The position numbers and the translations under genes were made by a program. From Candidatus Latescibacterota bacterium (GTDB lineage Bacteria; Latescibacterota; UBA2968; UBA8231), in assembly GCA_965248355.1 (NCBI GenBank), contig OZ252098.1, positions 5,312,001 through 5,376,000 on the forward strand: 64,000 nt of DNA, read 5' to 3'. Positions 45,132 through 56,549 of this stretch are shown piece by piece (positions within the stretch are counted from its first letter, which is position 1; the number at the start of each line of letters is the position of its first letter). The notes under the pieces are model-generated. The model searched no databases and was not told where the DNA came from. It was given only the letters and a program-made list of their open reading frames with translations.

Positions 45132-45476
45132 TTGACCGCTTACCTGCCTGTTCTCGCCTACCTCGGTCTCTGGCTCCTGCTCGGCGCCTGTCTGGGCCTG
45201 CTGCGCCGAGCCCTCGCCGGCCCATCGCGGGAGCCCGCATCCTCCGTGCCCGGCGGCGTCGAAGTCGAGTCCGGCGATCCATGCCTGCCCCTGGCTCGAC
45301 TCGCCCCGGCCGTGTCGGGAGCCGTCCTGCTGCTGGTCCTCGGGGCGGTCGAGCTGGAGGCGGAGCCGGTCGCCGACGCTCTCCTTCCATTCCTGCTTCT
45401 CGTCCTCGTCGTCGCCATCGCCCTGATCCACGCCGGCCGTCGAAGGACGCGGTCCGACCCGGCGGAGCCTCCGTGA
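45132..45476 (+). CDS. nuoA: Highly divergent NuoA-like subunit
   Basis: TTG start, YLPVL, three TM helices, first position in the nuo order; YECG and FDxE motifs absent. Confidence 0.6.
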   Translation: MTAYLPVLAYLGLWLLLGACLGLLRRALAGPSREPASSVPGGVEVESGDPCLPLARLAPAVSGAVLLLVLGAVELEAEPVADALLPFLLLVLVVAIALIHAGRRRTRSDPAEPP

Positions 45477-46999
45477 TCGGCCCGGTCCTGCCGCCTCCGG
45501 CCGGGCCGGCGGCCATCGAGGTCGCCGGCGGCGACCTCGAGAGGGAGGTGAGGGGCCTGCTGGACGAGGATCCGACGCTCCATCTCGTCGACTTCACCGC
45601 CGCGGGCGGCCACCGGACCGATCCCCCGCTCCGCGGGGTGTATCAACTTCGTTCCGCCGCCGGAGACCGGATCCACCTGACGGCCGCCGGTGGCGGGGAG
45701 CTGCCGGGACTGGCCCACATCTGGGCCGCCGCCGACTGGCCTGAGCGCGAGGCGGCGGAGCGCTTCGGGATCCGCTTCACCGGCCGTGAGGACCTGCGGC
45801 CCTTGATGCTCGCGGCGCCGGCCACGGCCCCTGGAGAGGGGTCTCCGCGGTCCGAAGGGGAGGTGCCGATCCACGATCCGGCCCTGGGCACCCCCTTCCG
45901 GCTCGACTTGGGGGCCCGCCTGCGGGGCGGCCGGATCATATCGGCCGAGGCCCGCCCGGGACGCCTGCACAGCGGCTTCGAGAAGCTCGCCGAGGGCCGC
46001 ACCTACGCCCAGTTGCCGGTGCTGGCCGAGAGCCTGAACGAGCAGGCGCCGTTCACGGCCGGGCTGGCGGCGGTCCTCGCCGCCGAGGCCCTGCTGGAGA
46101 TCGAGCCGCCGCCCCGGTGCACCTGGGTGCGCACCCTGCTGGCCGAGGTCAGCCGCATCGCCGCCCACTGCGCCTGGCTGGCCAATCTGGCGGGACCGGA
46201 TGCGCCTCTGTGGGGTCAGTCCCTGGCGGCCCGGGAGTCGGCGGCCCGTTTCCTGGCCGCGGCCAGCGGCCGCCGCTGGGCCACGGGGGCGCAGCGCATC
46301 GGCGGCATCGCCGCCGACGTGCCGGCCGCAGCCGACCGGCTGCTGGGGGAGCTGCGGTCCTCCGTCGACCGGCTGCGCTCGGAGGCCGAGCGCAGCACCG
46401 TCGACCACCGCGGCTGGCGCCGCCGCTTCACCGGCGTCGCGGTCCTGGACGCCGCCGGGGCCCTTTCCGCCGGAGCCTCGGGGCCGGTGGCCCGCGCCTC
46501 GGGCCTCGACCTCGACGTACGGCGCACCGATCCCTATCTCGCCTACGGCGAGGTCCGGTTCCGCGTGCCCACGGCGGATTCGGGCGACGTCGTCGACCGG
46601 ACGCGGGTTCGCCTCGAGGAGATGGGGGAGAGCCTCGCCGTCGCCCGGCAGTGCCTGGCCGCCGTCCCCGCCGGGTCGACCCTCGCCCACGAGACCCCGC
46701 AGCCGACGGTGCGTCCCACGGAGCCCGCCGAGTTGATCCGCCACTTCGAGCGCTGGATGGATGGCCACGGCCATCGTCCCCGCCCCTCCGAGGTCTACGT
46801 GCCCATCGAGTCCCCCGACGGGGAGCTCGCCTTCTACCTGGTCTCCGACGGCAGCGGCAGTCCGGCCCGGGTCCACCTGCGCTCGCCCTCCCTGTTCCAC
46901 TTCCAGGCGCTGCCGCCGCTGCTGGCGGGGCTCCGGTACAACCGCGCTCCCCAGGTGGTGGCCAGCCTCAACGTCATCGCTTCCGAGATGGACCGGTGA
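45473..46999 (+). CDS. nuoCD: Divergent fused NuoCD-like subunit
   Basis: ADWPERE..FGIRFTG..DLR (NuoC); GRLHSGFEK, EVSRI..H, SGPVARASG..D.R..PY..Y, ESPDGEL, RSPS, SEMDR (NuoD). Confidence 0.88.
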   Translation: MIGPVLPPPAGPAAIEVAGGDLEREVRGLLDEDPTLHLVDFTAAGGHRTDPPLRGVYQLRSAAGDRIHLTAAGGGELPGLAHIWAAADWPEREAAERFGIRFTGREDLRPLMLAAPATAPGEGSPRSEGEVPIHDPALGTPFRLDLGARLRGGRIISAEARPGRLHSGFEKLAEGRTYAQLPVLAESLNEQAPFTAGLAAVLAAEALLEIEPPPRCTWVRTLLAEVSRIAAHCAWLANLAGPDAPLWGQSLAARESAARFLAAASGRRWATGAQRIGGIAADVPAAADRLLGELRSSVDRLRSEAERSTVDHRGWRRRFTGVAVLDAAGALSAGASGPVARASGLDLDVRRTDPYLAYGEVRFRVPTADSGDVVDRTRVRLEEMGESLAVARQCLAAVPAGSTLAHETPQPTVRPTEPAELIRHFERWMDGHGHRPRPSEVYVPIESPDGELAFYLVSDGSGSPARVHLRSPSLFHFQALPPLLAGLRYNRAPQVVASLNVIASEMDR

Positions 47000-55146: not shown

Positions 55147-56549
55147 AATGGACCGACCTGGTCCGCCCGGACCTGGCGCCGGAGGCGAGCCTGGGCCTGC
55201 TGGCCATCGGCCTGGCGCTGCTCGACGCACTGCTCTGGCCGCGCCGCTCCAGCCGGGCCCCGTCGTACCTCACGTTGGGCGGCCTGCTCGTGGCGGTATC
55301 TCTCTCCCTGCAGACCTGGGACCCCGTCTTCCACCGGCGGCACGGCTGGCTCTACGCCGACCCGGCGGCCACCCTCGCCGACCTTCTGATCCTCGGCGGG
55401 GCCGTGCTCGCGGCCCTGCTGGCGGCCGGCGAGCCCTCCCGGGCCGGTGACCGGACCGCGGCGGGGGTCCTGACCGCCCTGAGCGCCCTGGGCGCCATGG
55501 TCGCCGTCTCCGCCCGGGATCTCATGGTGCTGTTCGTCGGTCTCGAGCTCAGCACCCTGAGCCTGCTCGCCTACAACGCCCTGGGTCCGGCCGCCGCCGC
55601 TCGCGCCGCCCTGCGCCAGGCCGGGCCCTGGGCCGCGGCCACGGGGCTGATCCTGGTGGGCATCGCCTGCCTGTGGGCCGGGGCCGGCACCTCCGACTGG
55701 GATCTGGCCCGGGACATGCGTCCCTGGTCTGCCGGGCTGACGGTCACCGGGGGGGCGCTCCTGCTGGCCGGCCTCGCCGTGCGCGCCGGGGCCGTGCCCT
55801 TCCACTTCTGGGTGAGCGAGGTCACAGCCGGCTGCGCTCCCTCGGCGGTGCTGCTGACCGTGGCCACCGCCGTGGTGCCGGCCCTCCTGGTCGCCGGCCG
55901 GCTGGCGGAGGTCCTGGCCGCCGTCCGCCCGGACCTGCGCTCTCTGCTGCTGGCCGCGGCGATCCTGACGGTGACGGCCGGCAACCTCCTGGCCCTGCCC
56001 CGGCGGAGGCTCGCACGGCTGCTCTCGTACGGCGTGGTGATCCAGGCGGGCTATGCCCTGGCGGCCCTGGCCGCCGTCCCGGTGGGGTCCTCGCCCGCCC
56101 TGTGGCTGCAACTGGCCGCGATGATCCTCGCCATCGCCGGCGGACTGTCGGTGAGCGGCCTCATCGGCCGCGGAGGGACGGCGGCCGGCCTGGCCCGCCG
56201 GAAACCGCTTGCCGGCGCCGCCCTGTGCGTTTGCCTGATCGCCCTGGCCGGCCTGCCGCCAACGGCCGCCTTCGCCGCACGTGCGGTTCTGTTCTCGGGT
56301 CTCGCGGAACCTCTGTCGGCGGCCTCGGTGCTGGTGCTGGCCAACGCCCTGCTCACCGCCTGGGTCTTCCTCCGCTTCGCCGCCCGTGTGGCCTGGGGGC
56401 GGGAGGAGGCCCCAGGGGACCTGTCGCCGGATGCCGGGAGCCTGTCGGCGGCGCTCCTGAGCGCCGGTCTGCTGCTGATGCTGGGCCTGTGGCCGGCGCC
56501 GCTGGCCCGGGCCGCGGAGGCCGCCGGGCTGGCGGCCGGGCTGAGATGA
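55143..56549 (+). CDS. nuoN: Divergent NuoN-like subunit
   Basis: LAPE, LFVGLEL, AVPFHFW, GNLLAL..RLLSY..AGY, LAGLPPTA, LGLWP. Confidence 0.85.
   Translation: MKWTDLVRPDLAPEASLGLLAIGLALLDALLWPRRSSRAPSYLTLGGLLVAVSLSLQTWDPVFHRRHGWLYADPAATLADLLILGGAVLAALLAAGEPSRAGDRTAAGVLTALSALGAMVAVSARDLMVLFVGLELSTLSLLAYNALGPAAAARAALRQAGPWAAATGLILVGIACLWAGAGTSDWDLARDMRPWSAGLTVTGGALLLAGLAVRAGAVPFHFWVSEVTAGCAPSAVLLTVATAVVPALLVAGRLAEVLAAVRPDLRSLLLAAAILTVTAGNLLALPRRRLARLLSYGVVIQAGYALAALAAVPVGSSPALWLQLAAMILAIAGGLSVSGLIGRGGTAAGLARRKPLAGAALCVCLIALAGLPPTAAFAARAVLFSGLAEPLSAASVLVLANALLTAWVFLRFAARVAWGREEAPGDLSPDAGSLSAALLSAGLLLMLGLWPAPLARAAEAAGLAAGLR

Follow-up and report, generated by a model that had tools for sequence, protein, structure and literature searches.

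Complex I is among the most conserved of the energy-converting machines, and its natural variants usually swap modules and keep the coupling residues. The locus described here raises the question of what a bacterium keeps when the subunits of this machine are still encoded and the residues on which its catalysis depends are not. In the window analyzed, a stretch of 64,000 nucleotides (nt) from contig OZ252098.1 (assembly GCA_965248355.1, a host genome of 5.50 Mb in a single contig), 11 plus-strand open reading frames (ORFs) lie at positions 45132-56549 between the genes of the Na+-NQR and those of the ATP synthase. According to the ORF listing and the frame-specific G+C they follow the nuo order A, CD, E, F, G, H, J, K, L, M, N and encode 12 subunits, NuoC and NuoD being fused, with nqrM on the 5' side and atpZ on the 3' side. 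This agrees with the original prediction of 11 genes in nuo order over 11.4 kb, joined mostly by 4-bp overlaps, starting 14 nt after nqrM and overlapping atpZ. Judging from the comparisons presented below, we consider it probable that a second complex I paralogue of 14 subunits (Nuo2) is encoded in split form, mainly by this block and with NuoB and NuoI provided in trans, and that Nuo2 is an assembled, iron-sulfur (Fe-S)-bearing, non-canonical complex under relaxed purifying selection that no longer works as a pumping NADH (reduced nicotinamide adenine dinucleotide):quinone oxidoreductase.

NuoB and NuoI are absent from the block, but only from it: both were found elsewhere in the genome as standalone genes, nuoB2 and nuoI2, with all their Fe-S cysteines. 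The four cysteines of cluster N2 are kept in NuoB2 and both CxxCxxCxxxCP motifs in NuoI2, in this genome, in all same-genus orthologues examined and in two genomes of other genera (G017 and G023), with small spacing or motif variations in G014 and G022, so that the Fe-S chain to N2 would still be encoded. Same-genus orthologues are 82-83% and 61% identical in NuoB2 and 68-69% and 49-50% identical in NuoI2, while canonical NuoB shows 91-93% identity between genera; by this measure the divergence of the two genes tracks the block and not the canonical cluster. Their ratios of nonsynonymous to synonymous substitution rates (dN/dS) lie between 0.09 and 0.36, and both genes are retained in every block-bearing genome where they were searched for.

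The phyletic pattern was surveyed in 63 genomes of the family (Gemmatimonadaceae) that are at least 85% complete, taking at least 42% identity as the threshold for a NuoF2-type gene; the surveyed genomes are kin and the counts do not represent independent events. Such a gene was present in 17 of the 63 (this genus 7/7, g6 2/2, g9 3/3, g15 1/1, g5 1/1 and g14 3/28). All 17 block-bearing genomes have a NuoB-like gene outside the block, and 34 of the 46 block-less ones have no NuoB-like gene at all; the remaining 12 gave NuoB-like matches, most of which have other NuoF-like genes as neighbours on their contig and so belong to other clusters, and one of the 12 is below the family cut-off. With the NuoI model, nothing above 35 bits was obtained in five near-complete block-less genomes, versus 71-78 bits for the NuoI2 orthologues. 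Going by their common rate, their presence together and the mostly joint absence of NuoB-like genes, the block, nuoB2 and nuoI2 behave as one unit.

As for the surroundings of nuoB2, the gene is part of the string hrcA-grpE-dnaJ-apbC-nuoB2-prmA and begins at the stop of a gene for an ApbC/Mrp-type Fe-S cluster carrier (293 bits; within G000:C1:1787651-1788873). A eukaryotic relative of these carriers acts as an Fe-S assembly factor for complex I, and the apbC-nuoB2 pairing may reflect cluster delivery to NuoB2. The possibility that this second NuoB-like gene encodes a hydrogenase small subunit was ruled out, given that it stands alone beside apbC and scores as NuoB.

Support for the identity of the block subunits is uneven. 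The Pfam models recognized NuoC, NuoD, NuoE, NuoF, NuoG and, weakly, NuoM and NuoN; NuoA2, NuoH2, NuoJ2 and NuoL2 gave no match, and NuoK2 fell below the cut-off. NuoL2 could be aligned with canonical NuoL (hhalign, 98.3% over 519 columns) and is full length, including the C-terminal part. NuoH2 matches NuoH of G022 (blastp, 28% identity over 313 amino acids, E 4e-5), which in turn reaches 180 bits on PF00146, and its direct alignment with canonical NuoH is weak (hhalign just 21%, E 1e-3); on these matches the identity of NuoH2 is confirmed only transitively, via G022 NuoH. Its Atlas neighbours include PF00146-bearing clusters, which we take as a lead only, and its AlphaFold2 model, built from a seven-sequence alignment, had a mean predicted local distance difference test score (pLDDT) of 43.4, too poor for a fold search. 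A NuoK profile made from this genus and G014 matched NuoK of G023, G017 and G022 in hmmsearch, and the equivalent H, A and J profiles found no match among canonical or intermediate proteins. NuoA2 and NuoJ2 had no match in Pfam or in other family searches, nor NuoA2 in NCBIfam. Orthologues of both genes are present in G002, G006 and G007 (65-67% identity for nuoA2 and 63-68% for nuoJ2), and the gene at the nuoA2 position is recognizably NuoA in G017 and G028.

The residues of the encoded proteins were then scored in alignments with the canonical proteins of G028, with the proteins of this genome's own canonical cluster and with solved chains; their functional roles and numbering are those established for the complex I family. 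The Fe-S ligands are in place throughout. NuoE2 has the cysteines of the N1a 2Fe-2S cluster (Cx4C, Cx3C), conserved in all orthologues, NuoF2 keeps GRGG and the N3 cysteines, and 15 of the 17 cysteine columns of a canonical relative are conserved in NuoG2 across this genus and G014, the two variable columns being presumably non-ligands. With the standalone genes included, the alignments show no loss of an Fe-S ligand in NuoE, NuoF, NuoG, NuoI or NuoB, either here or in the orthologues of the same genus.

The same alignments bear out the loss of catalytic residues that had been predicted, in NuoD, NuoF, NuoH, NuoK, NuoL, NuoM and NuoN. At the input end, GAGAY-ICGEET of 8e9g_F and G028 is aligned to VPGPLPVAAGDS in NuoF2, and NNVE to HSAS; across the genus the first motif reads as (V/S)PGPLPVAAGDS-like sequences and NNVxT as HSAST or HTAST, while NuoF of G022 is near-canonical in both. 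At the quinone site, DRMDY of 7q5y_B is aligned to ESLNE of NuoCD2, the site tyrosine being replaced by Glu; the position holds Glu in G014 and G022, Asp in G023 and Tyr in G017 and G028. The GPQHPxxHG loop of NuoD is unalignable in this genus, with loss of the His, and unrecognizable in all Gemmatimonadaceae copies, G017 retaining its first His only. In the membrane arm, the acidic residues of the loop between transmembrane helices (TM) 5 and 6 and the SYE motif are gone from NuoH2 and partly kept in G017 and G022, and both conserved Glu residues of NuoK2 are Gln (Gly or Gln in G017, G022 and G023). Regarding the antiporter-like subunits, NuoL2 keeps the TM5 Glu, has lost the TM7 Lys and has Arg for the TM12 Lys; NuoN2 keeps the TM5 Glu, has Arg for the TM7 Lys and has lost the TM8 Lys; and NuoM2, examined at three positions (TM5 Glu, TM7 Lys and TM8 Lys), has lost each of them, the alignment with 7a23_M giving Gln for the TM7 Lys and a further K to V change. 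NuoM of G017 retains the TM5 Glu and the TM7 Lys. Of the features that define a complex I, therefore, the 14 core subunits (NuoA2 and NuoJ2 by position only) and the Fe-S cysteine ligands are encoded, while the NuoF motifs, the NuoD Tyr and His, the NuoH loop acids with the NuoK Glu, and the antiporter Lys/Glu set of NuoL, NuoM and NuoN are not in their canonical state.

A complete set of subunits, a complete encoded Fe-S chain and purifying selection are what would be expected of a working proton-pumping NADH:quinone oxidoreductase with unusual residues. We nevertheless regard such an enzyme as very improbable, in view of the joint losses at the NuoF motifs, the NuoD Tyr and His, the NuoH loop acids, the NuoK Glu and the three charged positions of NuoM; in this family each of the lost residues is needed for activity. 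Because input, output and coupling residues are lost together, Nuo2 would not be a pumping NADH:quinone oxidoreductase, and bulk NADH oxidation would fall to the Na+-NQR, its obvious replacement. The earlier idea of an Fe-S redox arm holds for the cluster ligands, which are kept, but the NADH/flavin mononucleotide entry site has probably been lost as well, to judge from the NuoF motifs.

The stripped state appears to be old. The order nqr-nqrM-nuo (12 subunits)-atpZ-atpI-atpB, whose presence in relatives had been proposed as a check, was found in five same-genus genomes (G002, G006, G007, G001 and G009), and the nqr-nuo-atp order in G014, G017, G023 and G022 of other genera; in all the block-bearing Gemmatimonadaceae genomes examined, the genes immediately upstream are those of the Na+-NQR. 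In G028, from another family of the same class, an A-C-D-E-F-G-H-J-K-L-M-N-atp cluster has canonical Pfam scores and motifs, nuoB and nuoI at a locus separate from the block, and no nqr upstream. On its contig C16 (locus L114, 8708-11438) there are two nuoB genes 1.2 kb apart, with a hexapeptide-repeat transferase gene between them and nuoI after the second, an uncommon nuoB duplication at a locus that serves a cluster without B and I in cis. Pfam bit scores for H/L/M/N are 428/301/283/271 in G028, 202/133/171/184 in G017, 180/73/139/192 in G022, 122/76/53/184 in G023, none/none/32/99 in G014 and none/none/30/77 in this genome, a stepwise drop that, read from the scores, is a degeneration series from G028 to this genome. 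The replacement of the NuoD Tyr by Glu or Asp and the loss of the NuoK Glu are common to genera whose atpB is 62-80% identical, which argues for a long-lived stripped state.

With respect to selection, pairwise dN/dS of the block genes estimated by NG86 was 0.13-0.57, except for nuoJ2 (0.38-0.93), while nqrC, nqrD and nqrF gave 0.08-0.50 and atpB 0.07-0.13; with YN00 the block genes ranged from 0.05 to 0.51, nuoJ2 reaching 0.81 in the closest pair, versus 0.01-0.07 for those four neighbours. Excluded from these estimates were nqrE, whose dS was near 0 and whose ratio was either not a number or an omega above 3, and a number of pairs without a numerical value. The comparison between relatives that had been suggested thus gave ratios below 1, as expected of genes under constraint, and above those of nqrC, nqrD, nqrF and atpB. 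The combination that would characterize a pseudogene array, stops or frameshifts in the orthologues with dN/dS near 1, was not found. Same-genus identity is 63-84% or 33-60% in the block, compared with 87-96% or 64-84% in nqrB-F and atpB, and the Ala and Gly content of the block proteins is 25-39% versus 16-28% in the canonical nuo proteins of the same genome, so that the block is both more diverged than its neighbours and Ala/Gly-rich, as had been noticed from its sequence. Lys accounts for 0-0.9% of the block proteins, with far more Ala, Gly, Arg and Pro. Rates and composition together indicate, at the sequence level, relaxed constraint and compositional drift. Strains recovered in contigs of four runs, from four studies, diverge by about 2.4% over the block and by roughly 0.2-1.3% over the nqr pieces; among the 12 indels listed, those inside block genes are of 3, 3 and 30 nt, in frame, and a 2-nt deletion at the nuoF2 stop/nuoG2 start leaves both genes intact.

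Taken together, loci that act as a unit, an old stripped state, conserved ligands and dN/dS below 1 suggest that the proteins are still made and folded into an Fe-S complex, which would be an L-shaped membrane assembly without proton-pumping NADH:quinone function. It would be kept, by selection that is relaxed but real, for some accessory task, which could be electron transfer at low flux with different partners or a structural contribution.

Several observations weigh against this reading. The block has been cleanly deleted repeatedly in sister lineages, which suggests that it is dispensable: at 30 loci, the gene upstream of atpB is nuoN in 13, nqrF-nqrM directly precedes atpZ without the block in another 13 (G016, for instance, shows a clean nqrM-atpZ junction) and neither arrangement is present in four; moreover, the block is kept in only 3 of the 28 genomes of one genus. 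The dN of the block is 3-6 times that of nqrC, nqrD, nqrF and atpB, and the small neighbours nqrM, atpZ and atpI have NG86 ratios of 0.12-0.89, as high as those of the block itself. Third-position G+C is 0.83-0.91 in the block versus 0.94-0.96 in nqrF and atpB, second-position G+C is 0.60-0.69 versus 0.40-0.42, and first-position G+C is also higher in the block; this codon-position profile fits weak expression with compositional drift. NuoA2 and NuoJ2 are without sequence-level support and were named by position and size. Polarity could act on the standalone genes too, since both are in tight strings (apbC-nuoB2-prmA and nuoI2-dxr), and no positive evidence was found for any new donor or acceptor. 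Finally, a frame change was seen near the end of nuoF2 in G007, the only case among the block genes of five same-genus loci. In that genome (locus L018, reverse complement, around 7545-7712) nuoF2 shifts frame after ...LCGHGPLGSSA, and the original frame remains open into nuoG2 over 1199 amino acids; the change may be genuine, as a frameshift or a fusion, or may come from an assembly or sequencing error in a genome of two contigs. An apparent frameshift in nuoG2 of G009 was discarded, the break being a run of 10 N.

Some of these points would favour considering Nuo2 a plain relic, functionless and on its way to being lost, whose frames stay open only to spare the atp operon from polarity or from lost translational coupling. 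Besides the repeated deletion of the whole block, the raised dN and the drifted composition, the loss of catalytic residues at every functional site would be in line with it, as would the way the genes are joined: 4-bp GTGA/ATGA overlaps at 8 of the 11 junctions, and no excess of terminator-like or promoter-like sites across nqr-nuo-atp (three terminator-like sites versus 4.1 expected, and no promoter-like site). We see this explanation as rather unlikely, however. Its dN/dS should be around 1 and is mostly 0.13-0.57; the Fe-S cysteines are all conserved, whereas the remainder of these proteins shows 33-60% identity within the genus; the stripped state has lasted through the divergence of several genera; and nuoB2 and nuoI2, which are unlinked to the atp genes, are kept in every block-bearing genome searched. 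For the same reasons, frames maintained only against polarity, as contemplated in the original prediction, are disfavoured. Of the signs of plain decay in relatives that had been named as refuting the original prediction, one was observed, the deletion of the block in many of them; ratios near 1 were not, nuoJ2 apart, and frame changes came to one apparent case.

A stronger version of retention can also be envisaged, in which Nuo2 is a natural "dead-site" complex I, fully assembled in the L shape, that has kept its Fe-S chain, has given up NADH, quinone and pumping, and has been selected for a new job. Candidate jobs would be that of a redox wire or sensor anchored in the membrane and working with different donors and acceptors, or that of an organizing scaffold made together with the Na+-NQR and the ATP synthase from one transcription unit. 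In that case the genera of G028, G017, G022, G023, G014 and this genome, in that order, would document stepwise the conversion of a pump. From what the sequences offer, we put this forward only tentatively and with some doubt, and the strong claim of repurposing is weakened by the many deletions in sister lineages and by selection that is relaxed relative to nqr and atp. Repurposing and relaxed selection were the right pair of alternatives to set out at the beginning, the former having lost ground in its strong form.

The preferred interpretation, an assembled complex with an accessory role, also has to be compared with one in which only NuoE2, NuoF2 and NuoG2 matter. A canonical nuo cluster was in fact found elsewhere in the genome, as the original prediction had suggested checking; it comprises 11 subunits and lacks E, F and G (Table 1), and the block could act as a donor of that module, with its other genes as passengers. 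The only other NuoE/F/G-like genes of the genome are a pair at 3.807-3.812 Mb, and E, F and G are the best conserved proteins of the block (76-84% identity versus 63-69% for H, J, K and L). This arrangement seems improbable to us: NuoF2 of this genus is without the GAGAYICGEET and NNVE of canonical NuoF, the membrane genes are under purifying selection too, nuoB2 and nuoI2 would be superfluous, and the block is present in G017, G051 and G086 with just one NuoB-like gene, which in G017, a genome in one contig, stands by itself, outside any canonical cluster. As for the pair at 3.807-3.812 Mb, it was ruled out as the N-module of the canonical cluster; the alpha subunit and the NuoE-NuoF fusion that compose it look, in sequence, like a soluble NAD-linked formate dehydrogenase and not like part of complex I. 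Block proteins are just 29-33% identical to the paralogues in the canonical cluster and in this pair. An IS630-family transposase gene (258 bits; G000:C1:4550994-4552088, locus L101:10997-12088, minus strand) lies between the canonical nuoD and nuoH. The insertion is apparently specific to this genome, since the distance from NuoB to NuoI is around 4.2 kb here and around 3.2 kb in G002, G006 and G001, and it may split the canonical nuo operon.

Coordinates of all these features are collected in Table 1. The block starts after a 14-nt gap from the end of nqrM, the atpZ start overlaps the nuoN2 stop, and the junctions that depart from the 4-bp overlap are 1-nt spacers at nuoF2/nuoG2 and nuoL2/nuoM2 and a 10-nt overlap at nuoH2/nuoJ2, with an uncertain start. 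No internal stop was found in any of the 11 ORFs. Window G+C is about 70-77%, and with around 76% G+C, stretches free of stops are long in every frame of either strand, which makes the lack of stops weak evidence; the real evidence for genes is, from the alignments, that the orthologues stay in frame. A 1308-amino acid minus-strand ORF (53055-56981), antisense to nuoL2-nuoN2, has a codon-position G+C unlike that of a gene and is one of many such ORFs. In the nqr cluster, compensating +1/-1 indel pairs were seen in close strains at 38802-38822 and 43583-43589. The first falls inside the nqrA ORF, which is long and opens with TTG, and the gene may therefore truly begin downstream of 38822; the second changes just the final residues of nqrE.

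Table 1. Features of the nqr-nuo-atp region, in window positions, and nuo-like loci elsewhere in the genome, in genome positions (last four rows).
Feature	Position	Strand	Evidence and remarks
nqrA-F	38739-44828	+	Upstream Na+-NQR cluster; context
nqrM	44857-45117	+	PF04400, 27 bits vs cut-off 22; last gene of the Na+-NQR cluster; context
nuoA2 (putative)	45132-45476	+	Hydrophobic ORF of 114 amino acids, TTG start; position and size only
nuoCD2, fused NuoC-NuoD	45473-46999	+	PF00346 3e-63, PF00329 4e-12; PDB 7q5y_B 4e-58
nuoE2	46996-47412	+	PF01257 3.8e-12
nuoF2	47409-48725	+	PF01512, PF10589; best PDB match 8e9g_F 9.5e-63
nuoG2	48727-50334	+	Short, 535 amino acids (short in relatives too); five Pfam domains
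nuoH2, strongly diverged	50331-51266	+	blastp to G022 NuoH; no Pfam match
nuoJ2 (putative)	51257-51715	+	Hydrophobic ORF of 152 amino acids; position and size only; start uncertain
nuoK2	51712-51984	+	PF00420 16 bits, below cut-off
nuoL2	51981-53687	+	No Pfam match; hhalign to canonical NuoL
nuoM2	53689-55146	+	PF00361 29.9 bits; PDB 7a23_M 4e-13
nuoN2	55143-56549	+	PF00361 77 bits
atpZ	56546-56794	+	PF09527; start of the F-type ATP synthase cluster; context
atpI-like	56791-57093	+	ATP synthase cluster; context
atpB	57214-58065	+	PF00119; ATP synthase cluster; context
nuoB2	G000:C1:1787651-1788046	-	NuoB model NF005012, 132.5 bits vs cut-off 116
nuoI2	about 931589-932020	+	NuoI models are the top matches; upstream of a dxr-like gene
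Canonical 11-subunit cluster, nuoA-B-C-D-(IS630 transposase)-H-I-J-K-L-M-N	4.544-4.555 Mb		No E, F, G
NuoE-NuoF fusion (584 amino acids) beside formate dehydrogenase alpha (956 amino acids)	G000:C1:3807068-3811693 (locus L102)		TIGR01591, 818 bits

The persistence of around 13 kb of genes, with all 14 subunits, under purifying selection across several genera and despite the loss of input, output and pump residues is what gives this locus its relevance. If Nuo2 is assembled, it would constitute a natural experiment separating the parts of complex I required for folding and assembly from those required for catalysis, and it might reveal a new function for the complex I scaffold. The graded series, along with the repeated loss of the whole complex, could in that case also show how redundancy with the Na+-NQR erodes a respiratory enzyme. 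There is a consequence for genome annotation as well, since counting nuo genes would call a functional complex I here, and requiring nuoB and nuoI in cis would call none.

In comparison with known systems, a full-text search of a limited literature, supplements apart, found no complex I with these losses and no nuoB/nuoI in trans in Gemmatimonadota. Two complex I isozymes have been reported in Gemmatimonas aurantiaca T-27 (Spero et al., 2015; PMC4453560), which resembles the present case in having two complex I gene sets in a Gemmatimonadetes genome; there the isozymes were scored by presence and clade (C, C), and the text of that report, supplements apart, mentions neither residue loss nor split nuoB/nuoI. 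The text of the 2024 Gaopeijiales paper describes strains with nqr and without nuo (PMC11651109).

Canonical bacterial complex I (8e9g, 7q5y, 2fug/4hea and 7p61/7z7s were matched) shares with Nuo2 the 14 core subunits, the nuo order, a fused NuoCD and the Fe-S ligand cysteines of NuoE, NuoF, NuoG, NuoI and NuoB. Nuo2 differs from it in having nuoB and nuoI at separate loci, in the replacement of the NuoF, NuoD, NuoH, NuoK and most antiporter residues, in NuoH and NuoL that Pfam does not recognize, and in proteins that are extreme in Ala, Gly and Arg and almost free of Lys. Closer to it are the orthologous clusters of G028 and G017, with the same order upstream of atpZ-atpI-atpB, a short NuoG, and nuoB and nuoI in trans; G028 departs from Nuo2 by its canonical motifs throughout and the lack of nqr upstream, and G017 by keeping the NuoD Tyr and the NuoM TM5 Glu and TM7 Lys, the NuoK Glu having already been lost. 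The 11-subunit complex I-like enzymes without NuoEFG, among them the one encoded at 4.544-4.555 Mb in this same genome, are, like Nuo2, a modular variant, but of the opposite kind: in them the N-module is absent and the quinone and pumping residues are kept, whereas Nuo2 has the N-module and lacks the catalytic residues.

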